From IMG/VR virus record IMGVR_UViG_3300009095_000034, positions 1-39,040 of that record: DNA of 39,040 nt. The stretch is one strand, 5' to 3'. The DNA is from a virus. Its lineage: Duplodnaviria; Caudoviricetes. Shown piece by piece: positions 31 through 38,924 of the stretch. How positions within the stretch are numbered: the first letter of the stretch is position 1; the number at the start of each line of letters is the position of its first letter. The notes under the pieces are model-generated. The model made no database searches and was not told the DNA's origin. It saw only the letters and a list, made by a program, of their open reading frames with translations. Both the position numbers and the translations under genes were made by a program.

Positions 31-123
31 ATGAGCACCGAGCCAGTCAGCATCCCCACGAAACGCGCGCCGATGAAGGTGGTGTTCGCCAGCCTCGTCG
101 GCACCACCATCGAGTGGTACGAC
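31..123 (+). pseudogene. 5' fragment of host MHS-family MFS transporter, interrupted by the prophage
   Basis: ATG at 31 after AGAAAGGA reads MSTEPVSIPTKRAPMKVVFASLVGTTIEWYD, then runs into phage DNA and stops at 154-156. Confidence 0.92.
117..123 (+). other. attL core GTACGAC
   Basis: Identical 7-mer at 38918-38924; the junction restores the host ORF. Confidence 0.9.
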
Positions 124-168: not shown

Positions 169-1437
169 CTAACTCAACTGGGGCGCTGGGGCACTCTCGG
201 GGCACACCAGCTCGCCGCCGAGTTTGGCGAGATCCGGGTTCTCGGCGGCCAACTCGGCGAACGCGGCGTCGATCGCCTTGCGGGTCCGCTCCTCACTGGA
301 CGGCATGAGGTGCGTGTAGGTCCGGAGCGTGAACGACGGGTCGGCGTGACCGAGGTACTCGGCAACAGCCTTGATCGACTCACCAGCGTCGAGCAGCTTG
401 CTCGCGTAGTAGTGTCGCAGCGCGTGCGCGCCGTTCTTCCTGTCACGAGGGATGCCGACGGCGTCGAGCGCGGGATACCAGACGGCGGCGGTCACGGAGG
501 CGCTGTGCAGAGCCCTCCCCGACTCGTTGGTCAAGATCAACGAGACGGTGTGATCGTCGCCGTCTGGTTCGGCCCACGGGAGGGTTACCTCCCGCGCCGG
601 GTACTTGGCGAGGTAGGCGGCGAGTTCCTCCCGCACGGACGGCGCTAGGGGCACGTCTCGGGTCTTGCCGCCCTTCGGGAGAGCGAACACTCGCCGGTTG
701 CCGACGATCTTCACTTGCCGCCGGACGTGCACCCACCCGCGTAGCCAGTCGATGTCGTCCGGGGAGAGCCCGAACGCCTCGCCCGGTCGGAGCCCGAGCC
801 CGGCGCCGACGACAACGAGCGGCCGATACCGCTCTTCGATCCTCTCCCGCATCCCGGCGACCCACGCCGACGACCACGGGACGACCCGCTCGCGCTCCCG
901 CTTGGGAGGCTTGACCGACTTCGACAGCGCCGGGTTGCGCGGGATGAGCTCGTCCTCGACGGCGGCGGCGAGGATGCTCGCCACGTGGTCGAACACGACG
1001 CGGGCCGTCGAGTCGGCGATCGTGAGTCCCTTGATCCACGCCTGCACGGTGGACGGCCGGATCTTCACGAGCGGCGTTTTCCCGAGCGTGGTCCCGGTGA
1101 CGTACCGGCGAAGCCGCCCGGCGGTGTTCTCGATCGTGAGCGGGTCCGAGGTTCGGTTTGCGAGCCATTCCGCAGCGAACTTGTCGAAGGTGATTTGCCC
1201 GGCCTTCGGGTCGATATACGACCCCTTGAGCATGTCGCCTTCGATTTCCTTGCGCTTGTTGTTGGCGTCCGTCCATTTCGCGAAGGACAGTTTGCGCGGC
1301 TGCTTGTCGGGGTCACGCCAGCGGAGAAGCCAGCGCTTGCCTTTCCCGTACCGGTCGGTTTTGACCTTGTCGACTACGTTGCCGTCCTTGTCTTTGATTT
1401 CTTTCCACCATCGGTCATCAATGCTCGCCACGGTCAC
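169..1437 (-). CDS. int: Tyrosine recombinase / phage integrase
   Basis: GLRPGE (R), K, HALRH (HxxR), LGH and TYTH (Y) catalytic motifs; N-terminal arm-binding region; start may be GTG at 1431. Confidence 0.97.
   Translation of the reverse strand: MTVASIDDRWWKEIKDKDGNVVDKVKTDRYGKGKRWLLRWRDPDKQPRKLSFAKWTDANNKRKEIEGDMLKGSYIDPKAGQITFDKFAAEWLANRTSDPLTIENTAGRLRRYVTGTTLGKTPLVKIRPSTVQAWIKGLTIADSTARVVFDHVASILAAAVEDELIPRNPALSKSVKPPKRERERVVPWSSAWVAGMRERIEERYRPLVVVGAGLGLRPGEAFGLSPDDIDWLRGWVHVRRQVKIVGNRRVFALPKGGKTRDVPLAPSVREELAAYLAKYPAREVTLPWAEPDGDDHTVSLILTNESGRALHSASVTAAVWYPALDAVGIPRDRKNGAHALRHYYASKLLDAGESIKAVAEYLGHADPSFTLRTYTHLMPSSEERTRKAIDAAFAELAAENPDLAKLGGELVCPESAPAPQLS
178..206 (+). repeat. Putative integrase arm-type sites, left arm
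   Basis: CTGGGGCGC / CTGGGGCAC / TCGGGGCACA in tandem, matching the right-arm repeats. Confidence 0.7.
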
Positions 1438-2018: not shown

Positions 2019-2056
2019 ACGAGCCCCCGTCGCCGGAAGTGGCGACGGGGGCTCGT
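2019..2056. terminator. Stem-loop terminator between convergent xis and DUF397 genes
   Basis: 16-bp perfect stem ACGAGCCCCCGTCGCC / GGCGACGGGGGCTCGT followed by TTT. Confidence 0.85.
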
Positions 2057-2083: not shown

Positions 2084-2293
2084 TCAGGCAGGAAGGTCGC
2101 CGTTGCGGACGGCGTCGACGAACTTCGCCCAAGCGGCGCGGGACACGGCGAGCATGTCCCGGTTCGGGTCGCCCTCCTGCTTGGTGTCACGGATGCCCGT
2201 CATGTCGGGCGCCCATCCGATCTCGACGCACTCGGCGTTGGGGTTGCTCCGGGAGGACTTCCTCCACCCGGTGAACTGGTTGGGGTTAGGCAT
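2084..2293 (-). CDS. DUF397 protein (BldB/Scr2-like)
   Basis: WRKSSRS...ECVEIG...IRDTK...AAWAKFVDAVRNG signature. Confidence 0.93.
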   Translation of the reverse strand: MPNPNQFTGWRKSSRSNPNAECVEIGWAPDMTGIRDTKQEGDPNRDMLAVSRAAWAKFVDAVRNGDLPA

Positions 2294-2318
2294 GGCTGCC
2301 GTGCCTTTCTCTCTCGCT

Positions 2319-3191
2319 TCACAGTGCCCCGGCCGCTTCGGTGATCATCGCTCGCGAGTCCTCCTCGTCGAGTGCCACCTTGTCGAGCTGGGACAGACAC
2401 ACCGTATAAGCCTCGATGTCGGCGGGCGTGTCCTGGTAGACGGCGCCTTGCCGGTTCTCGACGTAGACGAACCCGGGCACGTCCTCGTCCGGGAATTGCA
2501 GCATGACGAACGACCCGAACATCCCGGCGTGCGCTCCGGCCGCGAACGGGACGACTCGGATCGAGACGTTGTCGGCGCGGGACGCCTCGACAAGCCGTTC
2601 GAGTTGCTCGCGCATCACATCGGCACCGCCAACAGGGCGCCGGAGAACCGCCTCATTGAGGAAGTATTTCAATTCTGGCGGCTGATCGTGATTCACCTCC
2701 TCCTGCCGCTTCATCCGGAATTCGACACGCTTCGCGACTTCGTCGTCTGGCAAATCAGGAACAAGAGTCCGGGTGCTCGCCTCGATGTAAGCGGCCGTCT
2801 GTAGCTGCCCCGGAACCCACTCGGATTGATAGCTCCAAATGGTCGCAGCGTCGGCTTCCTGCCCAACGAACGACAGGAAGTATTCCGGGGTTGTCTCGCG
2901 GTATTGCGTCCACCATCCGCGTTGGTTCGCGGCGCGGGCGAGCTCGACGAGTGTGTTCGTGGTCCCGGCGTCGGCGCCGTAGAGCGTGCACAGGAGCCGG
3001 ACGGCGGGCGGCTTGATCGCCTGCTTCCCGAGCTCGATCTTGCTCACGGTCGGCGGCTGCACTTCGAGCCACTCGGCGGCGTCCTCGCGGAGCTTGCCCG
3101 CGTCCTTCCGGAGTTGCCGAAGCATCGCGCCGAGCTGCCGTCGGCGCACGGACGGACCGCGCCGCGTCGTAGCGCGCCCACCTGTCGACAT
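2319..3191 (-). CDS. XRE-HTH + DUF5753 regulator (WhiJ/Scr1-like)
   Basis: RRRQLGAMLRQLR HTH; GWW; VPGQLQTAAY; NEAVLRRPVGGADVMREQLERL; FVYVE. Confidence 0.94.
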   Translation of the reverse strand: MSTGGRATTRRGPSVRRRQLGAMLRQLRKDAGKLREDAAEWLEVQPPTVSKIELGKQAIKPPAVRLLCTLYGADAGTTNTLVELARAANQRGWWTQYRETTPEYFLSFVGQEADAATIWSYQSEWVPGQLQTAAYIEASTRTLVPDLPDDEVAKRVEFRMKRQEEVNHDQPPELKYFLNEAVLRRPVGGADVMREQLERLVEASRADNVSIRVVPFAAGAHAGMFGSFVMLQFPDEDVPGFVYVENRQGAVYQDTPADIEAYTVCLSQLDKVALDEEDSRAMITEAAGAL

Positions 3192-3250
3192 GAGACCTCC
3201 ACTCGATCATGGCCACCGGGGCGAACAGTCTGTCACGCCCGGTCCTGGTC

Positions 3251-3367
3251 GGAACGTTCTCGTCCGATCGGGTGTATCGACCTTACGAGTTGAACAAGAA
3301 CGATTGCTAGAGGAACGTTCCCCATGCCATTGTTCCCGACACGATCAGTCGTCGGAAGGCACGTTCC
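3251..3367. promoter_or_regulatory. Three GGAACGTTCC-like palindromes in the divergent intergenic region
   Basis: GGAACGTTCT (3251), GGAACGTTCC (3312), GGCACGTTCC (3358). Confidence 0.5.
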
Positions 3368-3393
3368 GCCGACACCACTCACGGGGGTGCCCC

Positions 3394-3570
3394 ATGTCGG
3401 ACCTGTACGCACCAGCGGTGACGCTCCTAGCGCTCGTGATCACGGGTGGAGCGCTGTGCGTTGGCTCCGTTGCCGACGCCGTCCGCGACGCCGACTGGTG
3501 GGTCATCCTGCGCGGCCGTGCCAGCGCCAGGCGCGCCCGATTCCGCCGCTGGCGGGAGGCCCGGCGGTGA
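3394..3570 (+). CDS. Small protein with N-terminal hydrophobic helix and Arg-rich tail
   Basis: MSDLYAPAVTLLALVITGGALCVGS...; GGGGG RBS-like sequence; first gene of the + operon. Confidence 0.6.
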   Translation: MSDLYAPAVTLLALVITGGALCVGSVADAVRDADWWVILRGRASARRARFRRWREARR

Positions 3571-3830
3571 GCACCCCTCGAATCCAGCCCGACCCCGTGC
3601 GGTCGCGAAACGGAGAGCGCCGCCTACAGCGTGCGCCCCTGATCGCCGCCGCGTTCCGGTCCCGCGTGGGAGACCGATCCCCCGAGTACGCGGCGCCGCA
3701 CGGGGACTCGTCCGGTGTGCCCGTCCCCTCCTGGCACCACACCGGACGAGCCATCCCGTCGGCCGGAGCGGGCGACCGCGAGCGCCTGTCTCCGGCCGAC
3801 GGACCCCGACCATTTCCGGAGGACACAACC

Positions 3831-4409
3831 ATGAGCACGCGGGTTGTTCTGGCGCGGGCACGCCGTGTCGGCGCATTGAGCGGCGGGCCATCCCTCGACG
3901 GGCCGCCGGAGGTTCACGCCTACCGCGTGTCGGTCGATGAGCTTTCGGCCGTCAGCGGCGATCTCAGCGCCGCGACCGACGCACCCGGCGAGCCTGGCTC
4001 GATGTGGGTAGCGGTGTGCGGAAACAAGCTCTCCCGGGGGGAGGCCGAGATCGTCGAGCGCTACGCCGGAGCGCCGTGCATGAGCTGCATGATGGCGGCG
4101 ATCATGGCGAGCGACGTCGCGCCGCTCAGCCGCGCCGACGTCGAGACGCCGCCCGCGCTGCCTCCGGCGCCCCCGGGCGTCGAGCTCGATCCCGCCTCGC
4201 CGGAGCCGTCGGCGCTCCCCGCGACGCCGACGCCGATGTACGCCGCTTCCTGGCGGGAGCGCGTCGTCCACATCGTCGAGCCGGGCGCGCCGGTCAAGGA
4301 GGTCGACGGCCGCACGCTCGTCATGGGTGCGTGCGGCGGGATCGGATGGCCCTGCAACAAGCCGAAGACCTGGGAGGTCTGCCCGGAGTGCAAGGCGGCG
4401 ACGTCATGA
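3831..4409 (+). CDS. Tandem HC3-type zinc-finger protein
   Basis: Two H...CG...CxxC units (VHAY..AVCG..CMSC; VHIV..ACG..CPEC) with a Pro-rich linker; GGAGGA RBS; in-frame alternative GTG start at 3567. Confidence 0.72.
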   Translation: MSTRVVLARARRVGALSGGPSLDGPPEVHAYRVSVDELSAVSGDLSAATDAPGEPGSMWVAVCGNKLSRGEAEIVERYAGAPCMSCMMAAIMASDVAPLSRADVETPPALPPAPPGVELDPASPEPSALPATPTPMYAASWRERVVHIVEPGAPVKEVDGRTLVMGACGGIGWPCNKPKTWEVCPECKAATS

Positions 4410-4603
4410 GCACGCTCGCCGAAGGGCTCGGCCTGCTCGCCGCCGCGTTGAGCAAGTTCGACGCCTACGCCGACGAGGTCGACGGCGACGACGAGACGTA
4501 TTCGTTGGTAGTCGAGACGATGAACGGCATTGAGGCGGGCTCGGCGCGGCTGGCGTGTTTGCTAGGACCTGAGCAGCAGGAGGCCGACCGATGCAGCGCG
4601 TGA
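4406..4603 (+). CDS. Hypothetical acidic protein (65 aa)
   Basis: ATGA overlap with the upstream stop; MSTLAEGLGLLAAALSKFDAYADE. Confidence 0.65.
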   Translation: MSTLAEGLGLLAAALSKFDAYADEVDGDDETYSLVVETMNGIEAGSARLACLLGPEQQEADRCSA

Positions 4604-4986
4604 GGCCACGACTGGGAGCCTCGCTGGCATGGGCCGGGGAGATCCCGGCGGACTTGACCGAGCTTGACCCGCCGACTTCGCCACGTTTCGCGGCGCTGCT
4701 CGACGTCACCGCCCCGGACATTCCCGTTGTGCAGGAAGGGAATTCGGCGCAGCCGCGTAAGGATGAGCCCGCGCAGCATGAGCCCGCCGAGCGTGCTCCG
4801 CGACCGGGCGAGTACGCCCCGATCACGCTGGAGCTGTTAGAGCGGCTACGCGATGCACTGGAGCAGTTGCCCCTCGATCAGCGGTGCGCACCCGGCGCAC
4901 CGGTCCCCAACGATGAAACGGAGGTGAGCGACGGCGCGCATACTGCGCCCTTGTTCCTAGATCAAGATGTCCGGAAGATCGCATGA
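4591..4986 (+). CDS. Hypothetical protein
   Basis: AGGAGG RBS; fills the operon up to the RiPP precursor. Confidence 0.55.
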   Translation: MQRVRPRLGASLAWAGEIPADLTELDPPTSPRFAALLDVTAPDIPVVQEGNSAQPRKDEPAQHEPAERAPRPGEYAPITLELLERLRDALEQLPLDQRCAPGAPVPNDETEVSDGAHTAPLFLDQDVRKIA

Positions 4987-5012
4987 CGGCACTACGGGAG
5001 GATTCCCCAACG

Positions 5013-5339
5013 ATGACCGCAGCACTCACGCGAGACACCGACCACGAGGTCGATCCGCTCGCTTCGCACGGGATGAAGTTCGCCCCCGGTGTGCGCGAGC
5101 TCGGCGACCCTGTCGAGGCCGAGCCGACGGCGCCGACCCCGTTCGGGCTGCGTTGGCTGACGCCGGTCGAGCGCCCGACCGTGCCGGAGTACCGGCTCGA
5201 CGGTGAGCGGCAGGTCGCCGTGGACCCGTCCGGGGCGCCCCTCGCCCCGCAGATGAAGAAGGATTGGACGACGACCGACTACTCCACCGACGGGGAGGAC
5301 CCGCCGTCGAGCGAGGAATTCGGCTGGGAGGAAGTCTGA
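5013..5339 (+). CDS. tgmA: ATP-grasp-modified RiPP precursor (graspetide/graspimiditide type)
   Basis: GGGAGGA RBS (alternative start 4983); leader PFGLR and YRLDGERQVAVDPSGAPL; core KKDWTTTDYSTDGEDPPSSEEFGWEEV with Thr/Ser donors, DG and acidic acceptors. Confidence 0.88.
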   Translation: MTAALTRDTDHEVDPLASHGMKFAPGVRELGDPVEAEPTAPTPFGLRWLTPVERPTVPEYRLDGERQVAVDPSGAPLAPQMKKDWTTTDYSTDGEDPPSSEEFGWEEV

Positions 5340-5342
5340 TCC

Positions 5343-6299
5343 ATGTCGGTGCTCGTACTCGCCCGTGACTTCGACCCGACGGCGGACGCGGTCGTCGAGC
5401 GCCTGACGGCGGCGGGCGTGAAGGTGCTCCGCGCCGACCTGGCGGACTTCCCGCAACGGTTACACCTGGACGCCCGCCTCCGTGACGGCCGGTGGTCTGG
5501 TCTGGTGAGTACCGAGCACCACTCGGTGACGCTCGACGGGTTGCGGTCGATCTGGTACCGCAACCCGTCGGCGTACTCGGTGCCGTCCGGGTTGGACGCG
5601 GCGGCGCGGAACTTCGTGTTCCGAGAGGCCAAGCTCGGACTCGGCGGCGTACTCGCGGCGCTGCCCGGCGTGCTGTGGGCGAATTCGCCGAACCGGTGTG
5701 CCGACGCGCTGTACAAGCCGTATCAGTGGTCGATCGCCGCCAACTGTGGACTGACCGTCCCCGACACGGTGATCACGAACTCCGGTGGTGTCGTGCGCGA
5801 GTTCGTCGCCGACCATCCCGACGTGGTCTCGAAGCCGCTCGGTGGTGCGGGGATGACGTCGAACGGGCAGGCGTACTTGAGCTACACGCATCGGCTCACG
5901 ACCAGCGACCTTGTCGACCTCGACGGGGTCGGGATGACGGCGACCACGGTGCAGGAGTGGGTACCGAAGTCCTACGAGGTGCGCGTCACGGTCATCGGTG
6001 ACGAGTGGTTCCCGGTCCGCATCGACGCCGGGGACGGCGGCCGGGAGGACTGGCGGGCCGATCCGGAGGGCGCGGCGTACTCGTTCGTCGACATGCCGAA
6101 GACCGTCTACAAGGGTCTCGCCGACCTCATGCGCCGGTTGGGTCTGACCTACACCGGGGCGGACTTCATCGTCCGCCCGGATGGGGAGTGGGTGTTCCTC
6201 GAAGCCAACAGCGGACCACAGTTCGGGTGGTTGGAAACGGCGACCGGCGCGGACATGACGGGCGCGATGGCACGGCTACTAGCAAAGGGGCTCACGTGA
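5343..6299 (+). CDS. tgmB: ATP-grasp ribosomal peptide maturase (MvdD/RimK-like)
   Basis: VLVLARDFDPTAD, SIWYRNP, KPYQ, SKPL, QEWVPKSYEVRVTVIG, DWR, ADFIV...WVFLEAN..QFGWLE. Confidence 0.94.
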   Translation: MSVLVLARDFDPTADAVVERLTAAGVKVLRADLADFPQRLHLDARLRDGRWSGLVSTEHHSVTLDGLRSIWYRNPSAYSVPSGLDAAARNFVFREAKLGLGGVLAALPGVLWANSPNRCADALYKPYQWSIAANCGLTVPDTVITNSGGVVREFVADHPDVVSKPLGGAGMTSNGQAYLSYTHRLTTSDLVDLDGVGMTATTVQEWVPKSYEVRVTVIGDEWFPVRIDAGDGGREDWRADPEGAAYSFVDMPKTVYKGLADLMRRLGLTYTGADFIVRPDGEWVFLEANSGPQFGWLETATGADMTGAMARLLAKGLT

Positions 6300-7447
6300 C
6301 AGCGACAGCATGGCCGGGGCTCGCTCACGGCCTGGTGGACGAGCTGGTCGACAAGGGCAAGCTCGTATCGCCGGAGTGGCAACACGCGATGCGGACCGTT
6401 CCCCGGCACGAGTTCGTGCCGAAGTTCTACGAACAGCGCGACCGGCAATGGCACGAGGTCACCGCCGAGTCCGACCCGGACCGGTGGTTGACGCAGGTCT
6501 ACACCAACAAGCCGTTGGTGACGCAGCTCGGCGAACTGCATCACGGCGGGATCGGGCCGACGTCGTCGTCCTCCGCGCCCGGTCTCATGGCGCGGATGCT
6601 CGAAGCGCTCGATGTCCGGGACGGGCACCGGGTGTGCGAGATCGGCACCGGCACCGGGTGGAACTACGCGCTTCTCGCGAACCGGCTCGGACCCGAGCGC
6701 GTGTTCTCCGTGGACCTGGACGGCGAGCTCGTCGAGCAAGCCCGGGAGAACATTCGTCGCGTCGGCTACGAACCGAACCTCGCGACCGCTGACGGCGCCG
6801 ACGGGTGGCCGGGCGGCGGGCCGTTCGATCGGCTCATCGCGACGTGCGCGGTGAACCGGATTCCGGCCGCGTGGATCGAGCAGACCCGCGAGGGCGGGAT
6901 CATCCTCGCGGACCTCAAGGTCGGCACGAGCACGGGCAACCTGGTCCGGCTGCGGCGGACCGCGAACGGCGCCGAAGGCCGATTCGTGGACGGGTTCTCG
7001 GCGTTCATGCTCATGCGCGGCGAGACGCACCCGCCGATCTCGGGGTACCCCGAGCGCGACCGCCAGCAGGCGCGGCACCGATACACGACGGTGATGGAGG
7101 AACGCCCGTGGGAATCGCCGGTCTGGTGGTTCCTGGCGTGCCTGTCCATGCCGTCCGGCGTGCGGTTCGGCTACACCCTGAACCCGATCACGGAGCAACC
7201 CGACGCGGTATCTCTGAGTTGCCCCGACGGGTCCTGGTGCGAGGTGTCGATCGACGCTGCTCGCCACGGCCGGAAGGTGTGGGAGGGCGGACCCGTGTCG
7301 CTGTGGTCGGCCGTCGAGCAGGCTCGCGACATCTGGTCGGCGCACGGGCGCCCGGACTGGTCGCGGCTCGGGCTCACCGTCACCGGCCGCGAACACGTCG
7401 TGTGGCTCGATTCTCCGTCCGGTCTTCGTTGGACGGTGGCCGACTAG
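6296..7447 (+). CDS. tgmC: PIMT-like O-methyltransferase of ATP-grasp RiPP system (aspartimide-forming type)
   Basis: GTGA overlap; PRHEFVP, TSSSSAPGLMARMLEAL, EIGTGTGWN SAM motif, DGADG, FDRLIATC; C-terminal GPVSLW..GRPDWSRLGLTV extension. Confidence 0.93.
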   Translation: MTATAWPGLAHGLVDELVDKGKLVSPEWQHAMRTVPRHEFVPKFYEQRDRQWHEVTAESDPDRWLTQVYTNKPLVTQLGELHHGGIGPTSSSSAPGLMARMLEALDVRDGHRVCEIGTGTGWNYALLANRLGPERVFSVDLDGELVEQARENIRRVGYEPNLATADGADGWPGGGPFDRLIATCAVNRIPAAWIEQTREGGIILADLKVGTSTGNLVRLRRTANGAEGRFVDGFSAFMLMRGETHPPISGYPERDRQQARHRYTTVMEERPWESPVWWFLACLSMPSGVRFGYTLNPITEQPDAVSLSCPDGSWCEVSIDAARHGRKVWEGGPVSLWSAVEQARDIWSAHGRPDWSRLGLTVTGREHVVWLDSPSGLRWTVAD

Positions 7448-7458
7448 CAGACACGACG

Positions 7459-7513
7459 GAACGCCCCGACCCTCCCCGTGAAGCGAGAGAACTCCGGGAG
7501 GGTCGGGGCGTTC
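7459..7513. terminator. Bidirectional stem-loop between the RiPP operon and the lysis cassette
   Basis: 18-bp perfect inverted repeat GAACGCCCCGACCCTCCC / GGGAGGGTCGGGGCGTTC. Confidence 0.85.
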
Positions 7514-7540
7514 TTGTGCCCGGTGCAGCCAACCGGGCGC

Positions 7541-7819
7541 CTATTCCGCGAGCCGTGTCGGCGGCGCGGCCGGGACGAGCGCCGTCCCGTCAGCCGTTCG
7601 CGGCCGTGCCGCCGGGGTCACCTTACGACGGGTCCAGATCGTCAGGAGGACCGACGCGAGGACGCCGAGCCCGGTCAACCCGACGGTGAGCCCGTTCGCC
7701 TCGCCGTTGGTGACCCACCCGGCGCCGACCGCGAGCGCCACCAGGACGCGGACGAGCTCGGCGAACCCGGCCGGTTCGGTGTGCATCTTCGACGGCTCCT
7801 GTGGAAGCTGGTGGCTCAT
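7541..7819 (-). CDS. Putative holin (2 TM)
   Basis: EPAGFAELVRVLVALAVGAGWV...LGVLASVLLTIWTRRKVTP; directly after the endolysin. Confidence 0.75.
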   Translation of the reverse strand: MSHQLPQEPSKMHTEPAGFAELVRVLVALAVGAGWVTNGEANGLTVGLTGLGVLASVLLTIWTRRKVTPAARPRTADGTALVPAAPPTRLAE

Positions 7820-7824
7820 GGTGA

Positions 7825-8802
7825 TCACTTCCAGATGGGGGCGATCTCGACGGCGAGCGACAGCGGCGCGTCGCCCCGGTAGGCGATCGCGATCTGAGTC
7901 GCCGCGCCGGGCACCTCGAACGACTGGCGGTCCCCGGCGGCGAGGGTGTAGCGGCCTTGCAGCGGGTACCGCTTGCCGCGCTTGCCGTCCGGCGCCCAAT
8001 CCTCTTCGGCGTATACCTCGGTGATCTCGGTGTCCTCCCCGGCTGCCAGCGACACGAACACCCGGCCCTGATCGCCGGTCACGACGCCGTTGCGGGGCGG
8101 GATGAGCCCGACGAACGTGCGGACGCGGTCCGGGCTCGCCGGGAGGGTGTAGCCGTAGGCGAGTCCACTCGGGACGTAGCGGCGCACGATGTCGCGGATC
8201 TCGGTAGCGATGGACATGTCGAGCTCACTTTCCCCGCCGCCACGGCGGATCAGGTTCGGGTCGTCGCGGAAACTCCGCACGGTGTCTTGCATCCAGCGGG
8301 TGTCGATGCCGACCGGGTCCGGCTTGCGGCCGGGCGGGATGCACACGTCCTTGTGTCCGCCGTAGCGCTCCGGGCCGCGTCGCATGTAGTGCAGCGCGGC
8401 GGCGACGAGACGCGGGTAGGCGTCGCGCTGTGCGGCCGTCCAGCCGCCGAGTCCCGCTGACTCCGCCTCGATGCCGATCGACTCGTCGTTGAGGTCGGTG
8501 AACCCGGCCCAGCGGGACGCGCCCGCGTGCCAGGCGACGCCCCCGGCGACGACATACACGGCGCCGGAGCGGCCGAGCCCGTAGTTGCACAGCGGGCCGG
8601 GGAGATCGCTCCTCCCGTCGGTGACGATGCGCTGCGACGGGTAGTCCCCGGCGGCCTTGTCCGATGTGGCCGTGTGGTGGCCGACGACGACCTCCACGGC
8701 GCGGAACCCGCCGTGTCCACGGGTGCGCCAACCGGGTAGCTCGATCACCGGGTACCCGGTCATGCGTGCCGCGTCGGCGAGCCACGGAATGTAGATCCCC
8801 AC
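7825..8802 (-). CDS. Endolysin, N-acetylmuramoyl-L-alanine amidase (Amidase_2)
   Basis: WLADA..GWRTRGHG, HHTA, GRSDLPGPLC, AWHAG, SIGIEAE, HKD..PGRKPDP. Confidence 0.93.
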   Translation of the reverse strand: MGIYIPWLADAARMTGYPVIELPGWRTRGHGGFRAVEVVVGHHTATSDKAAGDYPSQRIVTDGRSDLPGPLCNYGLGRSGAVYVVAGGVAWHAGASRWAGFTDLNDESIGIEAESAGLGGWTAAQRDAYPRLVAAALHYMRRGPERYGGHKDVCIPPGRKPDPVGIDTRWMQDTVRSFRDDPNLIRRGGGESELDMSIATEIRDIVRRYVPSGLAYGYTLPASPDRVRTFVGLIPPRNGVVTGDQGRVFVSLAAGEDTEITEVYAEEDWAPDGKRGKRYPLQGRYTLAAGDRQSFEVPGAATQIAIAYRGDAPLSLAVEIAPIWK

Positions 8803-8805
8803 CTG

Positions 8806-9078
8806 TCACGCCTCCTCGTCGTCGTAGGCGCCCGCCTCGTCGTCGGTGTCCGGCGCGGCGGGATCGGAGATCCGGGCGGCGAGGTTCTCCCGCGCCTGCT
8901 CGATGGTCTTCGGCCCGGCGCGGTCGGCGTCCCACTCGGCGGCCTCGTACTCCTCGCGGGAGTACTGGACGAGCGGGTCGAGGTCGGCGAGCGTCAGGTT
9001 CGGGTGGTCGACGAGCCGCGTCTCGTCCCACGCCGACGGCGGCGCGTCGCGGAACACGCTCGATTGCGGGTCTGTCAT
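8806..9078 (-). CDS. Hypothetical acidic protein
   Basis: GGGAGGG RBS; ends 3 bp before the endolysin start. Confidence 0.65.
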   Translation of the reverse strand: MTDPQSSVFRDAPPSAWDETRLVDHPNLTLADLDPLVQYSREEYEAAEWDADRAGPKTIEQARENLAARISDPAAPDTDDEAGAYDDEEA

Positions 9079-9177
9079 GGCTGCAATCCCCTCCCAGGTG
9101 GACGGTGTATCTGTGCTGGTCAGCTCATGCCGGCGCGAGCCCCGCGGCCTCGGTCGTCGTCTGCTGTGGACGATCGA

Positions 9178-9441
9178 CTAGCTCGCCTCGCGGCGATCCC
9201 GCCTGGTGGTGAGCTCGTCCGGGATCTCGGGTGGGGTGAGACCGTGACGTGCGATGTCTTCGCGTAGCGCGTAGATGTGGCGGAGCGCCGCCTCGAACTT
9301 GCGGCGGAGGTCGCGGACCTCCGATTCGAGGTCGACCACGGACTCCGCTCGTTGCCGTTGCCGGTTGAGCAGGAGCCCGCCAATCGCGGTGATCAACCCG
9401 GTGAGTCCGGCGAACACGGCGCCGACGAACGCTGCGTCCAC
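9178..9441 (-). CDS. Membrane-anchored coiled-coil protein (lysis cassette)
   Basis: N-terminal TM followed by LESEVRDLRRKFEAALRHIYALR heptads. Confidence 0.75.
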   Translation of the reverse strand: MDAAFVGAVFAGLTGLITAIGGLLLNRQRQRAESVVDLESEVRDLRRKFEAALRHIYALREDIARHGLTPPEIPDELTTRRDRREAS

Positions 9442-9444
9442 GAC

Positions 9445-9828
9445 TCAGCCCTCCGGGTAGGACGCCGACAGCCCGAGCGCCTGCATGGCGAGCCCGGCCG
9501 CCAGGCACGCCGTCGCCCACCCGGCGCCGCCGACGACAGCGGAGAACAGCAGCGCGAACGCGTAGGCGGCGAACACCCCGGCCGCCGCCAGCAGAGCCGC
9601 CGACCGCAAGCGCCGGGCGGCCAGTGCCGCCAGGAGCGCGACGGCGGCGCCGCCGAACAGCGAAGGCCAGAACGGGCCGACGCTGTCGAGGTAGGCGACG
9701 ACGTTCGCGGGTCGTCCCGGCAGCGGGTCGCGCAGCAGGTAGTACAGCGCCGCCCCGGCGAGCGAGACCACGATCCCCAGCGACGAGGCGGCGCGGTACG
9801 GCGCCGGGCGCGTGACGATGTCACTCAC
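9445..9828 (-). CDS. Multi-TM membrane protein (possible holin-like)
   Basis: About 4 hydrophobic segments; lysis-cassette position. Confidence 0.7.
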   Translation of the reverse strand: MSDIVTRPAPYRAASSLGIVVSLAGAALYYLLRDPLPGRPANVVAYLDSVGPFWPSLFGGAAVALLAALAARRLRSAALLAAAGVFAAYAFALLFSAVVGGAGWATACLAAGLAMQALGLSASYPEG

Positions 9829-10165
9829 TGGCGGTGTTCAGCTCCGGCGGGATTGCGGGGCCGTAGTCTGGGTAGGCGACGAACAGTTGGTTGATCTGTT
9901 CCACGCCCCGCAGCTCCGGCACTACGCCCATGTACGTGATGCTGGTGGAGTACCAATAGCCCTGCGTCACGGGGAATTCGTAGGTGCCGTACATCTGCGT
10001 GGCGCTGCGGGCCGTCGCGGTCCCGTCGCCGTTGTCCACAAAGTCGGTGACGTTGCCGGAGTTGCGGCCGAGCTGGGCCAGGTGCTCGCGGATCGCGGCG
10101 GTGTTGGTGCCATCCCAGATCCACACCTTGTGTACCTGCGGGCGGGGAAGTACATCGACAATCAT
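9821..10165 (-). CDS. Hypothetical protein (tail-associated)
   Basis: AGAAGGGA RBS; follows the tail fibre gene. Confidence 0.7.
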   Translation of the reverse strand: MIVDVLPRPQVHKVWIWDGTNTAAIREHLAQLGRNSGNVTDFVDNGDGTATARSATQMYGTYEFPVTQGYWYSTSITYMGVVPELRGVEQINQLFVAYPDYGPAIPPELNTASE

Positions 10166-10183
10166 CGTTGTGTCCCTTCTGGT

Positions 10184-10813
10184 TTACGGTCCGAGCCAAG
10201 CGACCGTGATCGTGTTGCTCCGAGCTCGCCAGATGTTCAGCGGCGAGCCTGACTGCCAGATCGCGGCGTACGCCGACACCTGTTGTCCAGCCGTGAACCG
10301 CATGAACGCTGACGCCGACTGGACATCCATCGACGGACCCGCAACGGACCCGAATTTCGCGAGCCCCGCGCCGGATGCGGCGTTGCTCTGCGACAGCCAC
10401 AGGGCGCGCACCGAGGAACCGGCGGTGTACTGAAGCGAGACGGTCACCAGCCACAGCCCGGCTTGGTTGATCGTGACCGTGCCGCCGCTGATGGAGCAAC
10501 CGGTCGGCGTGCCGACGGCGGAGACAAACTCGGTGATCTTCACGCCGTCGGAACCGCTGATGGTCTGGCCGGTTCCGTTGCCCTGGGCGTTGTTGTCGGT
10601 CCACTGTCCGAAGTAGGCGCCCGCGTTGGTGCCGACCGGCTTTCCTTCGAGCGTGGTGATCCGGTTGCCCTGCGACGTGATCGCCGACGTGTTGGACGTG
10701 ATGCGGGTTTCGTGGTCGGCGAGTTCGTTGGTGTTGGCGTTGACGAGGTCGATCAGAGCGTTCTGTTCGGCGGCGCGGGCGACTTCTCCCGCGACGACGT
10801 GAGGGATGGCCAT
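10184..10813 (-). CDS. Putative tail fibre / receptor-binding protein
   Basis: Short coiled-coil (DHETRITSNTSAITSQGNRITTLEG) plus C1q-like beta head (TINQAGLWLVTVSL..MRFTAGQQVS). Confidence 0.7.
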   Translation of the reverse strand: MAIPHVVAGEVARAAEQNALIDLVNANTNELADHETRITSNTSAITSQGNRITTLEGKPVGTNAGAYFGQWTDNNAQGNGTGQTISGSDGVKITEFVSAVGTPTGCSISGGTVTINQAGLWLVTVSLQYTAGSSVRALWLSQSNAASGAGLAKFGSVAGPSMDVQSASAFMRFTAGQQVSAYAAIWQSGSPLNIWRARSNTITVAWLGP

Positions 10814-10817
10814 GCGA

Positions 10818-13223
10818 TCAGCTCCAGATGAACGATTGGTCCCACAGTCCGTAGGTCGGCGAGTCCCACACGCCTTGTCCGGGGTTGACGACCATCTCGA
10901 CGGTGTAGGTGTCGGTCAGTCCCTCGCTGTCCATCGTGCGCTTGATCCCGAGAACCTGAAGCCACATGGACTCGCCGAAGCCGTCGGCGTCGCGGACTTC
11001 GATGGTGTCGGTGAGTTGGATGCGAGGGTCGCCGGGAACGGTCACGCTGTCGGACACCGGGATCGGTCGGGCGATCTTGTCCACGATGGACTGGAGCATG
11101 TTCCGGGTCTGGAACTCGTCTTGTAGCCATGCGTTGTTGTCGAGCTCTAGGACACGTTCGCCGTACTCGCGGACGGAGTTGTCGGCTCGGACCTCCCACG
11201 AGCGCGGCTCGTCGAGCGTGACGAGCGTGCCCTTGATGCGTAGCCGTTCGATGTTGTTGGGACCGACGAACCCGGTTGGGCCGGAGTTGCCGTTCCACAT
11301 CACGACTTTGGTCATGTCGCGGGAGGTGTTGCGCGGGACGATGTCGACGCGGAACCCGACGTACTTGTCCCCCTGGTACGACTTGTAGCCCTCGTACGGG
11401 GCGGGTTCGCTCCAGTCGGCGAACTCCGGAAGCAGTGGCAACGGCGAGGGGTGAACCGACATCATCTCGGGTTTGTTGGCGAACCACCCCTCCCAGTCGC
11501 CGGGGTTGATCACCATGATGGCCGGGAAGTACTCGCCGGTCTCTTGCCGTCGCCACAGGAGCTCGTCGTCGCGGGCGAGGTCGTAGACGATTCCCTCTCC
11601 GGCGCGGCCGGTTCGGGTGGTTGCGCGCCACACGTTGCGGACGCTGTCCATGGTGGTTCGCAGCCCGAGGGATTCGAGGTCGTCGACGGTGAACGTGCGC
11701 ACGACCGAAGATTGCCGCTTGTTGACGTCCTCGTAGTTGGCGAAGTTGAACCGACCGAATTCGTCGAAGTAGACGACGCCGTACTCCGCCGACGCGACTT
11801 CCTTCGCGAGCTCCCACGCCTCGCGGCCCGAGTCTCTCAGGGTGTAGGTGATGCGGTTGCGTCCCCAGCTCATGACGGCGTTGCCGTAGAGGCTGCGGTC
11901 GTAGGTGAGATTGGGGATGTCGTCGGCGTAGTAGCTACGCATGATCTGAAGATCGGAAAGCGCGTACTTGTTGGTGACCGTGACGAGGTTCTGCCATGCG
12001 TGGTCGGTGGTTTCGTTGGTCGGCTGGTACGGGCGGGACACGATCGGCGAGACCTCGTCGTCGACGCGGGTGCGCATCTTGACTTCCCGGCCGGGGTAGA
12101 GATCGAACGCGACCTCTAGGAAGTGCCACCCCGGCTCGCGCATGAACAGCCAGTAGCCGTCGGAAAGCACGCCGGATGTGGTGCCCTTCGTGCGGGCGCA
12201 CACGCCGCCGTTGCTTCCCTCCACGATGAGCTGAACGCTCGTGTTCGTGTCGAACATCTCGACGATGGTTGCCGACTCGTCGACGTTGTTTCCTGTCCAG
12301 TACAACCAGACGGCGAGGGTCGTCCCGCCCCATAGTCGCCGGTCGCTCGGGTACAGCGCCGCCGTCTCCGCCCAATACTTCTTGACGGCCCACGTGTTTT
12401 TCCCTCGTGGGACGGCGTTCAACGCGAGGTAGCCATGCGGTCCGGGCGTGTACTGCTCGGCTCGTGGCCGCAGCGCCGGGTCACGCTCCCATTCCTCGGT
12501 GAGGTGGAACTCCTCGACGTTATCGAGCGATCCGATCTCCGGCAGGATCGAGCCGTGGAACGGGACGGACAACACGAGCTGCCGGACCGGGTCGACGTTC
12601 TTGTACTTGTCGTAGCCGCGTGGCCCGGCGGAGAACCCGGCCGAGCGGGCGGCGAGGTCGATCACGCTCGACGAGTCGACCAGGAGCGCCCGCTTGAATC
12701 CGTTCACGAGGTACCGGGTCAACATGCCGTAGGCCGGTACCCGCGTCTTGGTGCGCATCAACTCGACGTTGTCGAGGCACTCGATCCGCACCTCTCCGGT
12801 CTCACGGTTGGCGTGCACGTCGCGGACAATGCCGGTGAACTGGACGTAGGTTTCCCAACCATGGCGGGTCTCGACATCGATCGCGTACCCGCACTGGACG
12901 CCGAGCGCGATTCCCTCGGTGTAGAAGATGGACCGGCCGTTGTTCGGGGCGAAGTGCGCGGCGAGGCTCATCCCGCCCAGCTCGCCAGTGATGGTCACGT
13001 CGAGTTTCCCGGCGGCGTAGCCGTCGACGAGCTTCACCTCGTCCGGCGCGGTCGAGGTCAACGTCTGGTCGCGGATGGTCTCGGTGACGAAGCCGGAAAG
13101 GTCCGACAGCGGGTGGCTGAACTGGCCGTCGTTGTTCCAGTCGACATAGAACCGGTGGCGGAACCGGCGTTCCGGCGAGGTGATCGCGGCGGCGCCGTCG
13201 GATGTGTACTGGTGCACGGTCAC
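10818..13223 (-). CDS. Large minor tail protein
   Basis: 801 aa after Dit; AWELAKEVASAEYGVVYFDEFG and GDPRIQLTDTIEV tail-hub motifs. Confidence 0.85.
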   Translation of the reverse strand: MTVHQYTSDGAAAITSPERRFRHRFYVDWNNDGQFSHPLSDLSGFVTETIRDQTLTSTAPDEVKLVDGYAAGKLDVTITGELGGMSLAAHFAPNNGRSIFYTEGIALGVQCGYAIDVETRHGWETYVQFTGIVRDVHANRETGEVRIECLDNVELMRTKTRVPAYGMLTRYLVNGFKRALLVDSSSVIDLAARSAGFSAGPRGYDKYKNVDPVRQLVLSVPFHGSILPEIGSLDNVEEFHLTEEWERDPALRPRAEQYTPGPHGYLALNAVPRGKNTWAVKKYWAETAALYPSDRRLWGGTTLAVWLYWTGNNVDESATIVEMFDTNTSVQLIVEGSNGGVCARTKGTTSGVLSDGYWLFMREPGWHFLEVAFDLYPGREVKMRTRVDDEVSPIVSRPYQPTNETTDHAWQNLVTVTNKYALSDLQIMRSYYADDIPNLTYDRSLYGNAVMSWGRNRITYTLRDSGREAWELAKEVASAEYGVVYFDEFGRFNFANYEDVNKRQSSVVRTFTVDDLESLGLRTTMDSVRNVWRATTRTGRAGEGIVYDLARDDELLWRRQETGEYFPAIMVINPGDWEGWFANKPEMMSVHPSPLPLLPEFADWSEPAPYEGYKSYQGDKYVGFRVDIVPRNTSRDMTKVVMWNGNSGPTGFVGPNNIERLRIKGTLVTLDEPRSWEVRADNSVREYGERVLELDNNAWLQDEFQTRNMLQSIVDKIARPIPVSDSVTVPGDPRIQLTDTIEVRDADGFGESMWLQVLGIKRTMDSEGLTDTYTVEMVVNPGQGVWDSPTYGLWDQSFIWS

Positions 13224-14053
13224 GCCTCCAGCAGCGTTACGGACACGTCGTTACGCGGGTAGTACGGGGAGACGCGCTCGACCTGGTCGACGAGCACGTG
13301 CGGCGCCGCGCCCCCGAGGTCCCACTCGGTCGGCGCCGGGCCGGACTCGACCTGTGCGGCGGCGGCCGTGATCGTGCCCCCGGCGGTGTCGTCGACGATC
13401 AGCGCGGCGCGGGTGGTGCCCGTTCCGGCGGGCACGGTCGCGGTCACCGAGTAGCGAGACCACGCGGTCGTGATGGTGATCCCTTGCGTCGTCGAGCTCG
13501 TGTGCTCGGTCGCCCCGGCCCGGATGTGGTCGAGCGCGATCCGGGCGGCCGTCGAGCCGCTTTCCGCCTTGAGCCACAGCGAGAACGTGACCGTTTCCTC
13601 GTCGAGCACGGGCACGGCGGGCAACCGGATGTAGCTGCCTGCGCCGTAGCTGGACCATTCGGTCGCGGTGACCGGGACGCCGACCTCGGCCGGGCCGACG
13701 CCGTCGCGGAGGATGCCGCCGGAGGACTTCCGGACGGCGTCGCCGAGCGGGAGCAGGACGGCGGCGTCACGCGGGAGCCGGTTCGTCCCGAGCGGGTCGA
13801 TCAGGTGGAACGGCCCGGCGATCGTGCGGTGGTGCAGTGCCTCGACGAACCGGGACTCCGACGGCGTGAGCCACGGGAGCGTGAGCTCCCAGCTTGCCCG
13901 GTGCCCTGTGACATCCATCGTGCGCGCTCCCGACAACGCCTGGTGCACGCCGCCGAACCGCTCGACGGTGCGTTTCACGTTGCTCTCTGGGCACACCAGC
14001 GGCCGGAGGTCACCGAGCGGTCCGAGATACCACGTGGCGGATTGCGGCTGCAC
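13220..14053 (-). CDS. Minor tail protein (Dit-like, with carbohydrate-binding insert)
   Basis: GTG start after GGAGG; WYLGPLGDLRPL; TVTFSLWLKA..TTAWSRYSVTAT..AQVESG CBM-like module. Confidence 0.8.
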   Translation of the reverse strand: MQPQSATWYLGPLGDLRPLVCPESNVKRTVERFGGVHQALSGARTMDVTGHRASWELTLPWLTPSESRFVEALHHRTIAGPFHLIDPLGTNRLPRDAAVLLPLGDAVRKSSGGILRDGVGPAEVGVPVTATEWSSYGAGSYIRLPAVPVLDEETVTFSLWLKAESGSTAARIALDHIRAGATEHTSSTTQGITITTAWSRYSVTATVPAGTGTTRAALIVDDTAGGTITAAAAQVESGPAPTEWDLGGAAPHVLVDQVERVSPYYPRNDVSVTLLEA

Positions 14054-14057
14054 GGGC

Positions 14058-16569
14058 CTACCTCCGGGCGTTGGACGAGTTGGTCGTGTTGACGAGCTTC
14101 GCGACGCCGTCACCCTCGACCTTCATGCGTGCGCCGTGGAGACCGGCGAGCACGCCCGCCGTTACGGCCGCCTGAATGCCGTCAGAAGCGCCGAACGAGG
14201 GCGAGGGGGCAGATGGGGCCGTGACGGGCACCGCTGCGACCGCTCGCGCCATCTCAGAGGCTGCTGTGACCGCGTTCGGTGCCGCTCGTTCGATACCGTC
14301 GGCGAAGCCTTCGCCGGTCCAGCGGCCGAGCTGGTGAAAGACCTTCGACGGGGAGGCAATCCCGAGCCACGACTTGACCTCGCCGACGGCGCTCTTGGCC
14401 ATGTCGCGCACGGTGCCGAGCAGGTTGCCGATCATGGACTTGACTCCGTTGATCAGGCCGCGGATCAAGTCGGCGCCAGCGTTCCACAGTAGACGGCCGA
14501 AGTCGCCGAGCGCTCCGAGGATGCGTCCGCCGAGGCTGGCCGCCAGGCCGACGAGAGAGCCGAAACCGTCGCGCACCACGGACACGACGAGGTTCACCGC
14601 TCCCGAGACGATCGACTTGATCAGCTGCCACACAGAAGCGATCACTTGTTGCAAACCACGCCAGACTTGCGAAGCGTCGCCGTTCAGGAATCCGCCGAGC
14701 ACCGTTAGGAATCCCTGGATGCCGGAGACCGCTGCCGACACAATCGACGCCGCCGTCTGGAAAACCGTTGTCACCAATGGCAGAAGTGCCGATATCGCAG
14801 GTGCAAGCACACTGACCAAAATGGACGCAAGATTCAGCAGTGGCGGCAGAACGGGAAGAGCTGCCTGCACGATCGATAGGATGCCGGAGACCAGCGGCGG
14901 CAGGATCGGCAGCAGCGCGCCGATCGCCTGAACCAGGAATCCCCCCCAGTGCCCCCGCGATTTGCGTCAGGACGGGCGTCGCGGCGGCGAGCGCCGTCGA
15001 GATGATTCCGGCGAGCTGGCCGATCGTATCTGTCAGCATCGGCAGAAGCGGCGTCACCGCGTTGAGCGCCGCGAGCAGCACACTACCCACAGTAGACGCC
15101 AATTGACCTAAGAGAGGCGCTACAGCGGTCAGGGCATCCGTCAGTGCTCCGCCGAGCTGCTGAGCGATCGGCACCAGTCCAGCCGCGAAAGCGTTCACCG
15201 CAGGAACGACCGCCGCGAAAGCTGGTCCGAGCCCGGCCGAGATCCCGCTTCCCAGCGTGCCGACGACCGTGAGCACGGAGCCGATCGCCGGGGCAATGGA
15301 CTTCAGAGCCGCGACGAATTGCGAGACGTGTTGCGCGTTCGCGGCGAAGAACGACCGCATCGCGTCTTGCCCCTGAACGGACCCGGTGATTTGCGCGAGC
15401 GCGCCCGTCATTTCCTTGAGCGAGTTCAGCATTCCGCCGCCGACATCCGACGCGGCGCGGAACACGTTCACGAGCGTTGCGCCGACGTTCCCGGCGACCT
15501 TGCCGAGATCACCAAGGACGGAGAGACCTTGCGAGATGATGTCGTGCAACCGGCCGGACTCAGCGGCGGCCGTAGCCCAGTCCGCGAAGCGGGTTGCCAC
15601 TTCAGACACTCCGGCCGCGAGTCCCGGAAGGAACTCGGAGCCGACCGCGCCAATCTGCGCGAATGCCCGGACTACCGCGCCCCCGGTCGGGATGAGCTCT
15701 CGGAACGCATCTGCCGTGTTGTCCAGCGCGACACGGGATGCGTCGATCGTCTCCGGCCGCATGAGCGCTTTCCCGGAAACCTGCACCATCGCGCCCATGG
15801 CTGCCGCGACTTGGCGCATACCGCCTTGCAGGAGCGGCAGATACGTCCCGCCGACGTTGCGGATCGTGTTGCCGAGTCCTTCGAAGAACTGTTGCTGTAC
15901 GTCGAGCCGCAGAGCGTCGAACGCGGGTTTCATGTCCCGGATCGCGATCGCCGTTTCCTGCGCCGACGGGGCGAGCTTTTTCAGCGCTTCGGCAAACTTG
16001 GCCGGGTCATCCATGTTGGACAGCGCGTCGCCCACGCCCTTAAAGGCGATCAGGAGCGTTCCCGCACCGACGGCCGCTGCGCCCAGCGCGGCCGGAAGCA
16101 ACGCGACCGATCCGGCCGCCTGCATCGCGATCGAGCCGAGCCCGGCGATCCCGGTCGCCGCCGGGCCGATCCCCGCCGCCACCAGCGACCGCATACCGAC
16201 AAGCCCACGTAGACTGCCTGTAAGGCGACCGATACCGCCCGTCGCGCTATCGATGCGCTTGCGGTCGACGTCGACATTCAACGTGATGTCGTGCCCGCTG
16301 GCGCGCTTCGCGATCGCGGCGACCTTCGTGTTCACGCCGTCGCCGTCGACGTCGACCGGAATGTCGACGTTCGCGGCTTTCTCCGCAATGTCGGCGACGC
16401 GACGAACGTCCCTTGTGAATCCGTCGGAGTCGACGACGGTCGGGATCTCGACGCGGGTGCTGCGCTCGATCCGCTGCAAGTACTTTTCCAGCGACCGGCC
16501 GAACGCGGACGTGTCCGGGAGAACGCGCACCGATACGCGCCCGACCTCACGTCCTCCCGGACCCGCCAT
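14058..16569 (-). pseudogene. Tape measure protein with a +1 frameshift at a G7 run (14941-14947)
   Basis: MAGPGGREVGRVSVRVLPDT N-terminus and LGIASPSKVF C-terminal motif lie in different frames; removing one G gives an 836-aa ORF. Confidence 0.88.
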
Positions 16570-16572
16570 GAT

Positions 16573-17288: not shown

Positions 17289-17372
17289 TGCACGGACCTC
17301 CCACGGCGCGGACCAAGAAAGGTGACCGCCGGGCGAGCGGGTCCGCGCAAGGCGCCCGCCCGACGGCCGTCA

Positions 17373-17927: not shown

Positions 17928-17968
17928 GAATCGGCCTCCTCAATGGACGGTTCGGGTTACCCGCGTGG

Positions 17969-18391: not shown

Positions 18392-18400
18392 GGGTGCCCC

Positions 18401-38917: not shown

Positions 38918-38924
38918 GTACGAC
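38918..38924 (+). other. attR core GTACGAC
   Basis: Matches 117-123; lies within the inverted repeat AAGAAGT-ACG-ACTTCTT (38913-38929). Confidence 0.9.

Follow-up and report, generated by a model that had tools for sequence, protein, structure and literature searches.

The graspimiditide genes and their predicted product

The virus record IMGVR_UViG_3300009095_000034, analysed here as one stretch of 39,040 bases (the window, to which all coordinates refer), carries three adjacent genes, tgmA, tgmB and tgmC, on the + strand at 5013..7447. Family scans find integrase, lysin, tail, capsid, portal, terminase, replication and repressor genes in the window, which is a 38.8-kb siphovirus-like prophage whose host is a soil actinomycete. 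By its sequence the trio is an intact graspimiditide (group 13 graspetide) cluster, and comparison with sister phages shows that it is an exchangeable cargo of the prophage.

The tgmA gene (5013..5339, with GGAGG ahead of its ATG at 5013) encodes a precursor of 108 residues that matches TIGR04186 with 39.8 bits against a cut-off of 25. It is followed by the gene of an ATP-grasp ligase, tgmB (5343..6299; TIGR04187, 352.9 against 350), which overlaps by GTGA with tgmC (6296..7447). The latter encodes a PIMT/PAMT methyltransferase of the type found with peptides that are made on the ribosome and modified after translation (RiPPs); it scores 365.3 with TIGR04188, just under the cut-off of 380, and matches Pfam PCMT with an E-value of 6e-32. 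The coordinates and family matches bear out the coupled precursor, ligase and PIMT-like enzyme of the original prediction, and its assignment of the trio to the graspimiditides is upheld by the same matches together with the core pattern of the precursor.

The predicted TgmA core spans W85-V108 (about 5265-5336) and contains T86-T88, S91, T92, D93-G94, E101, E102, E106 and E107. It is unchanged or differs at one to two positions in five close homologues, and the closest named homologues of TgmA (81% and 68%) are from Saccharopolyspora. Among 100 precursor candidates that were extracted, 49 have a core of the W..DG..WE[EI] type. In these related cores, T/S or D/E is kept at the positions of T87 (48 of 49), T92 (47), E101 (46) and E107 (48). 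The core is strongly acidic (the pI of the precursor is 4.3) and has no Cys, and a PDB search with the precursor returned chance matches only.

Eleven residues of TgmB (K125, K164, Q204, K209, E212, R214, D236, R238, D274, E287 and N289) are invariant across 34 homologues, and we take them to form the ATP-grasp site. The nearest solved structure is 9BOU (E 8.5e-42). The tgmB gene has a TTA codon at Leu40, also present in locus L104; TTA occurs in 19 of 100 tgmB genes and in 74 of 605 background genes, modestly above the background, at a position that is not conserved. TgmC has GTGTG at 117 and WSAHGRP at 347, corresponding to the GxGxG motif and the C-terminal WxxxGxP motif described for RiPP PIMTs (PMC13001092). 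The dN/dS ratio is 0.17-0.23 for each of the three genes in comparison with L104 and L003; tgmABC is under purifying selection.

The order of events leading to the product can be proposed by comparison with the characterized relatives and their equal-spacing rule (10.1101/2023.06.21.545981). TgmB would join T92 to E101 and T87 to E106 by equal spacing; further T86-E107 and S91-E102 esters are possible, giving a total loss of 36 to 72 Da. TgmC would then remove another 18 Da at D93-G94, forming an aspartimide. The resulting peptide would have the shape of a hairpin, with Thr-Glu esters closing it and the aspartimide at D93. The Thr-Glu linkage is a prediction, because the four characterized members use Thr-Asp. 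As was originally predicted, no transporter or peptidase family is matched by any of the 14 proteins of the cassette region in family scans. Because no exporter is present, the peptide would stay inside the cell.

The cassette module and its flanks

From left to right, the region consists of an integrase, an XRE gene, xis, a hairpin, a DUF397 gene, an XRE-DUF5753 gene, seven + strand genes, a second hairpin, a holin-like gene and an endolysin. The tgmABC genes are the last three of the seven-gene unit, which diverges from the XRE-DUF5753/DUF397 pair and converges on the lysis genes. The regulator pair is encoded on the - strand by a WhiJ-like XRE-DUF5753 gene (2319..3191; HTH_31 and PF19054, phrog_9908) and a BldB-like DUF397 gene (2084..2293; PF04149, E 2.5e-16) downstream of it. 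The window thus has the WhiJ/BldB-type layout, in which this pair is accompanied by a divergent target gene. The G+C content of tgmABC is 69.2%, against 68.3% for the rest of the prophage.

Both borders of the module are strong hairpins that are likely bidirectional terminators. The left one (2019..2056) has z-scores of -7.0 and -6.5 against shuffled sequences, a test that supports the hairpin, which a simple terminator scan had missed. The right one (7459..7513; z -4.5 and -5.7) lies between the cargo and the lysis genes, and likeness to the DNA of a sister phage starts again at 7472. Terminators at 2019 and 7459 had been proposed to bound the trio; the hairpins are real, and what they enclose is the whole 2084-7447 module, not the trio alone. 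The gene order, the strands and the flanking hairpins indicate that the module is insulated from, and antiparallel to, the lytic genes.

The intergenic region upstream of the XRE-DUF5753 gene contains a conserved 18-nucleotide element, TTG(C/A)TAGAGGAACGTTCC (3304..3321, + strand), a candidate promoter or operator. The element recurs in the matching intergenic regions of L143, which has a dnaE cargo, and of L114, and it is missing from all but one of the 74 other viral XRE loci. Three copies of an 11-nucleotide sequence are also found in this region. An 8-mer, GAACGTTC, occurs twice there and once by the repressor promoter; as a general operator it was rejected, as it lies upstream of XRE in just one of 74 viral loci.

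The four + strand genes that precede tgmA have no family match. They encode a membrane-like protein of 58 residues (3394-3570), a Cys-rich, probably Zn-binding protein (3831-4409), and proteins of 54 (4406-4570) and 131 residues (4591-4986). The top Atlas match of these leader genes, 0.89, has DUF3039 in 17% of its members and serves as a lead only.

The module is flanked on the left by a tyrosine integrase gene (169..1437, - strand; PF00589, phrog_1), an XRE gene (1418-1750, - strand; HTH_31) and, divergent from it, the excisionase gene xis (1830-2015, + strand; HTH_17, TIGR01764, phrog_66). On the right lie, both on the - strand, a holin-like gene (7541-7819), so labelled from its position and hydrophobicity, and an amidase endolysin gene (7825-8802; Amidase_2, phrog_880). 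The predicted prophage location between xis and the lysis genes is confirmed by these gene families and by the attachment cores. The 7-base core GTACGAC is found on the + strand at 117..123 (attL), inside a major facilitator superfamily (MFS) transporter gene, and again at 38918..38924 (attR). The MFS gene is split by the two cores, and its translated halves are consecutive parts of one MFS protein. The sister phage L140 likewise terminates in an MFS-type gene. Contigs matched to the window do not reveal excision; loose ends at 123 resemble the intact MFS genes of many bacteria.

Exchange of the slot between sister phages

A sister prophage, IMG/VR 3300009095_001142 (L143), was found by scanning IMG/VR with the lysin and the integrase of the window. 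Its DNA identity to the window is 81% for 7472-18812 and 88% for the integrase, and it ends in an MFS gene of the same kind. It retains the integrase, XRE, xis, DUF397 and XRE-DUF5753 (66%) genes and, as homologues of 39-51%, three of the four leader genes. Its slot holds DnaE and DUF6300 in place of tgmABC, this cargo (L143:2466-6550) including a full DnaE, the DNA polymerase III alpha subunit. Public metagenomes from soil and fermentation contain a more abundant relative that agrees with the window in the integrase and lysis genes; one of its contigs (X4) joins 3507 to 7548. Alleles of the cassette are exchanged as well. Two prophages, G094 and G114, are 93% identical in the lysin, 98% in the holin-like protein, 89% in the tail and 85% in the integrase-like protein, whereas their cargo is only 47% (TgmA), 59% (TgmB), 53% (TgmC) and 26% (regulator) identical. 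The tgmABC cassette is therefore an exchangeable prophage cargo.

The XRE-DUF5753 gene has 296 matches in IMG/VR. Among 79 loci that were read, most lie by integrase or lysis genes. TgmB and TgmC were found in none of the 75 parsed loci, for each of which nine upstream genes were covered; of the four unparsed loci, that of prophage G033 has the trio. In the cultured phages Mojorita and Darolandstone the slot holds HATPase, tRNA-synthetase-like and ASCH genes; the Mojorita order under XRE-DUF5753/DUF397 (L124:3226-5747) is HATPase, an unknown gene, 'tRNA synthetase' and ASCH.

A PIMT-only, imiditide/pamtide-like cassette is found in five cultured Streptomyces phages (Bioscum, Ididsumtinwong, Austintatious, PapayaSalad and Alderaan; eight records), where GenBank names the enzyme 'O-methyltransferase'. 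In Bioscum and Alderaan it occupies the same slot as in the window: a divergent XRE gene, small genes, a short Gly/Ser/Asp-rich reading frame and a TgmC-like PIMT (37%) converge on the lysis genes. These cassettes differ from tgmABC in having no ATP-grasp enzyme, and they are not annotated as RiPP genes; those at L122:5070-8155 (Bioscum) and L127:5079-8155 (Alderaan) have thus gone unrecognized. The Alderaan record has no integrase in the cassette stretch and keeps the cassette. A link to bldA through a tRNA-Leu annotated in Bioscum was discarded, as ARAGORN predicts no tRNA there.

Several related arrangements were seen in passing. Phage PIS 136 has DnaE between the integrase and an XRE/DUF397/PIMT region (L123:10627-14343), and in L050:12565-16116 a DnaE gene (55% similar) directly follows tgmC. 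In two sister prophages, those of G094 and G114, a tRNA-Ser(TGA) gene lies between the holin-like gene and tgmC (L235:8986-9073, L236:12545-12632). A tRNA-like stretch is found past their integrase, and the tRNA-Ser possibly replaces a disrupted host tRNA.

Recurrence in other prophages

The trio lies near the attachment end in eleven other prophages: three from IMG/VR (G031, G032 and G033), three from Saccharopolyspora (G002, G025 and G003) and five more (G035, G036, G094, G114 and G069). Attachment sites were not delimited in G031, G032, G002, G025, G003, G094, G114 and G069, and G094 and G114 are counted as prophages on conserved integrase-like and lysis genes at both sides of the cassette. 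In seven of the eleven the cassette converges on lysis genes as in the window. It follows early genes in G033, G035 and G036, the cassette of G036 being enclosed by a 48-bp tRNA-Arg duplication, and G069 has another order. The regulators are either XRE-DUF5753/DUF397 or, in half, an unrelated XRE-TPR protein. In a quick tree computed without G094, G114 and G069, and in which L031 and L041 are still labelled 'remnant', the prophage TgmB proteins fall into at least six lineages, the window included, separated by chromosomal copies. A 137-kb record (L086) with a TgmB of 35% and no TgmC was excluded from the prophage count.

In Saccharopolyspora there are 17 matches in 14 of 30 genomes. Three are in prophages with tail genes, five (L113, L114, L118, L119 and L120) are beside holin-like or lysin remnants, and nine are near neither. 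Only L120 is an independent holin-like match, because the profile was built from the hits themselves. L118 and L119 contain partial duplicate tgm copies. Next to a tgm/XRE/DUF397 remnant, L119 also has a 3' piece of the same MFS gene (L119:13712-13828, 82% to window 38918-39035), which suggests that this integration site is also used in another genome.

In a sample of 151 genomes of the Pseudonocardiaceae family, 47 have TIGR04187, a tally that includes three unpublished genomes later dropped. Three of 90 matches (44 genomes) have a portal or terminase gene (32 sites) no more than 25 kb away, against 0.48 expected (P 0.013); in Saccharopolyspora, with terminase alone, 2 of 17 do, against 0.10 expected (P 0.005). 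The null model uses these two marker families only and ignores contig ends. Pattern scans of IMG/VR with TgmC and with a TgmB alignment found nothing; these scans are insensitive, so the viral counts are lower bounds. The marker distances and genome loci indicate that prophages carry the cassette repeatedly and more often than chance predicts, while most clusters are chromosomal. The survey of prophages that had been proposed along with the cluster thus yields eleven further carriers, amid a chromosomal majority.

Many copies of TIGR04187 may occur in one genome (11 in G119, 9 in G153 and 6 in G037), a pattern of diversifying paralogues. An actinomycete integrative and conjugative element with integrase, xis, RepSA and FtsK directly adjoins a prophage-borne tgm cassette at L111:14212-19982. 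A GNAT gene is found downstream of the XRE-TPR regulator of another (L001:1774-2313), which may be chance; escape mutants of the lanthivirins, a class of PIMT-carrying lanthipeptides, map to a phage GNAT (10.1101/2024.06.26.600839).

The tape-measure gene of the window (14058..16569, - strand) is in two frames; the break is near 14,940, within a run rich in G, and both reading frames match PHROG tape-measure families. In the sister phage the gene is uninterrupted, at 836 codons. The break is spanned without a gap by contig X6 of another study, which has the same frameshifted state. The prophage of the window is likely unable to assemble tails and has an intact cassette, a situation resembling the Saccharopolyspora remnants. 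The integrase end (1-2015) has its own XRE/xis pair, and a cI/cro-like pair is located at the opposite end (36159-38113), where a 14-nucleotide palindrome, TCTCACGCGTGAGA, is present twice in the intergenic region. A putative tRNA-Pro gene is called at 29761-29858.

Relation to known systems

The original prediction ranked the cluster as a candidate for an undescribed system, which is an overstatement. Group 13 graspetides number 1,326-1,432 clusters, four of them characterized (PMC13001092), and the co-occurrence of graspetides with DUF5753/DUF397 has been reported (PMC8939145, PMC13097080), with WhiJ/BldB co-occurrence covering groups 11 and 13. The characterized graspimiditides (fuscimiditide, amycolimiditide, albusimiditide and SsfA) are likewise actinobacterial, with three adjacent genes, a Thr/Ser stem, an Asp-Gly loop and an acidic stem, and no protease or transporter. 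The trio of the window differs from them in being a swappable prophage cargo, in having Glu as the only C-terminal stem acceptor and in its core, which is short and has an end of the W-x-W-E-E type. Both the chemistry and the connection to XRE are already known; the context of an exchangeable prophage cargo appears to be undescribed. No published prophage-borne graspimiditide was found, and subscription papers, supplements and figures could already cover the core type or the phage location. The word 'phage' is absent from the main text, as far as accessible, of the graspimiditide and pamtide surveys (PMC8939145, PMC13097080, PMC10787088, 10.1101/2023.06.21.545981). Further related literature is found in PMC11118758, PMC7159879, PMC9903846 and PMC10787088.

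Another close parallel is provided by the lanthivirins, or lanthiphages. These actinobacterial, transporter-poor lanthipeptides with a PIMT act intracellularly against phages and are more often located on prophages (10.1101/2024.06.26.600839; the journal version is listed as Cell Host Microbe 2026 in the references of 10.64898/2026.08.26.747419). They share with tgmABC the general lack of transporter and protease and a TxDG-type aspartimide site, and they reside more often on prophages or plasmids and act inside the cell. They differ in their lanthionine chemistry, as opposed to ester cross-links, and the anti-phage action shown is theirs alone. The window has no LanB or LanC genes in family scans, and the TgmA core has no Cys; the system is not a lanthivirin, though it may work alike.

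The Streptomyces WhiJ/BldB/AbaA loci have the same XRE-DUF5753 gene followed by DUF397 and a divergent target operon. Compared with them, the module of the window is phage-borne, lies between int/xis and the lysis genes, and has a cargo that sister phages exchange. One such regulator, WhiJ9, activates its divergent gene iosA (PMC10294661).

Proposed function and alternative explanations

The cassette is inside the attachment sites, has its own regulator and terminator, is directed opposite to the lytic genes and is absent or exchanged in sister phages. These are the traits of a moron, and it is very probable that tgmABC is a lysogenic-conversion moron. Slot exchange and recurrence, set beside a majority of chromosomal clusters, argue for this and not for a core lysis-lysogeny gene. 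By analogy with the whiJ9/bldB9 locus of S. venezuelae, XRE-DUF5753 would switch on the divergent operon by way of the element at 3304-3321, and DUF397 would hold this operon in check. The peptide might then hinder other phages inside the lysogen without export or a protease of its own, as lanthivirins do. Given that the cassette is a moron, such an anti-phage role has somewhat less than an even chance. The complete picture, an exchangeable cargo switched on in the lysogen through the WhiJ-like regulator to make an intracellular anti-phage peptide, is offered tentatively. Allele swapping at prophage ends is typical of conflict cargo. The anti-phage role is ranked first for this reason and because lanthivirins, the only PIMT RiPPs with a shown function, act in this way, without transporters and more often from prophages. 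Among the functions suggested originally, superinfection defence is therefore kept as the best single, if tentative, guess.

A number of observations weigh against an anti-phage function. The cargos of the XRE/DUF397 slot vary (HATPase, tRNA-synthetase-like with ASCH, DnaE, small unknown proteins), and no recognized defence family is found among the others. In the family genomes, 87 of the 90 matches have no portal or terminase marker within 25 kb, and no phage genes are seen at 77 of 80 genome loci (the best 80 of 149, many of them short metagenome contigs). No group 13 TgmB is found in 50,697 GenBank phage records, in which there are two matches of 24-29%. An enrichment near defence systems is reported for lanthivirins (26.6% versus 5.6%); for tgm it is not seen with one defence marker, the N6-methyltransferase PF02384 (63 sites), which lies within 20 kb of none of the 90 matches, against 1.2 expected. 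All four characterized graspimiditides have Thr-Asp esters (PMC13001092), and the targets known for WhiJ/BldB act on sporulation, not on phage.

In a different role, the XRE-DUF5753/DUF397 pair would enter the BldB/WhiJ network of the host and the peptide would modulate sporulation or growth from inside the cell, tuning development or dormancy. Inhibitors of sporulation are under the control of WhiJ/BldB/AbaA paralog loci, and paralogs of BldB hetero-oligomerize (PMC10294661); other phages put AbaA-like HATPases in the slot, and tgmB has the TTA codon at Leu40 in common with L104. This role is nevertheless unlikely: half of the prophage-borne cassettes have the unrelated XRE-TPR regulator, TTA is only slightly enriched and moves within the gene, and allele swapping between sister phages fits conflict better than input into a host network. 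It is also rather improbable that the cassette is a near-neutral passenger, one of the XRE-led islands common in Pseudonocardiaceae chromosomes that recombination hotspots at prophage ends take up, the peptide serving the host in an unrelated manner and the phage merely spreading it. TIGR04187 is mainly located away from phage genes in the family, the slot contents vary widely, five Saccharopolyspora loci have kept their cassettes next to decayed lysis genes, and the tape measure of the window is broken. Against this stand the purifying selection on the enzymes, the presence of a PIMT-only RiPP in the slot of infectious cultured phages, and the independent capture of at least six lineages into the same position. 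The refuting outcome foreseen for the cluster, that related phages lack it as a passive passenger, is thus half borne out: the sister has no trio, whereas its uptake into this slot several times over, each independently, speaks against nothing more than a passenger.

A weapon or protease inhibitor, secreted or released at lysis and harming the competitors of the lysogen, would resemble the microviridins, graspetides that inhibit serine proteases, or sublancin, which is encoded in SPbeta. The prophage does integrate in an MFS transporter gene, but the integration splits the transporter and does not supply it, and the region has no exporter, peptidase or immunity gene. Host proteases can cleave off the leader of a graspimiditide (10.1101/2023.06.21.545981), whereas the strong acidity of the core speaks against a weapon. 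Release at lysis, as suggested originally, is doubtful for the copy in the window, whose genes oppose the lytic genes and whose tape measure is frameshifted. A weapon of this kind seems quite improbable. Least probable is the lysis-lysogeny signal that had also been suggested, a peptide acting in the manner of arbitrium. The trio adjoins int/xis and a DNA-binding regulator, and GAACGTTC occurs both in the XRE intergenic region and by the repressor promoter; shuffling yields three copies of this 8-mer in 9 of 100 cases. Such signalling is unlikely, as the trio is missing from a close sister phage. Arbitrium-like systems call for conservation in the phage lineage, an exported peptide and a receptor; the trio is not conserved in this way, and no route for export or import is found.

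Implications

The function of aspartimide-bearing RiPPs has been named the main open question of the field (PMC13001092). A prophage cargo with sister phages that have it, lack it or carry swapped alleles, together with the PIMT-only cultured phages of a laboratory Streptomyces, offers a specific hypothesis and the systems at hand to test it. If true, the anti-phage function of tgmABC would extend peptide-based phage defence past the lanthivirins and would explain the spread of the clusters.

A broader proposal, which we regard as doubtful, is that the aspartimide RiPPs of actinobacteria (graspimiditides, imiditides or pamtides, and lanthimiditides) form a single broad class of peptides that act against phages inside the cell and are disseminated by temperate phages. 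If so, the slot at the prophage end, switched by WhiJ/BldB or XRE-TPR regulators, would be their vehicle. Different cores would target different phages, with sister phages swapping alleles, and many of the 'orphan' clusters on chromosomes would be cargo that decayed prophages had left behind.

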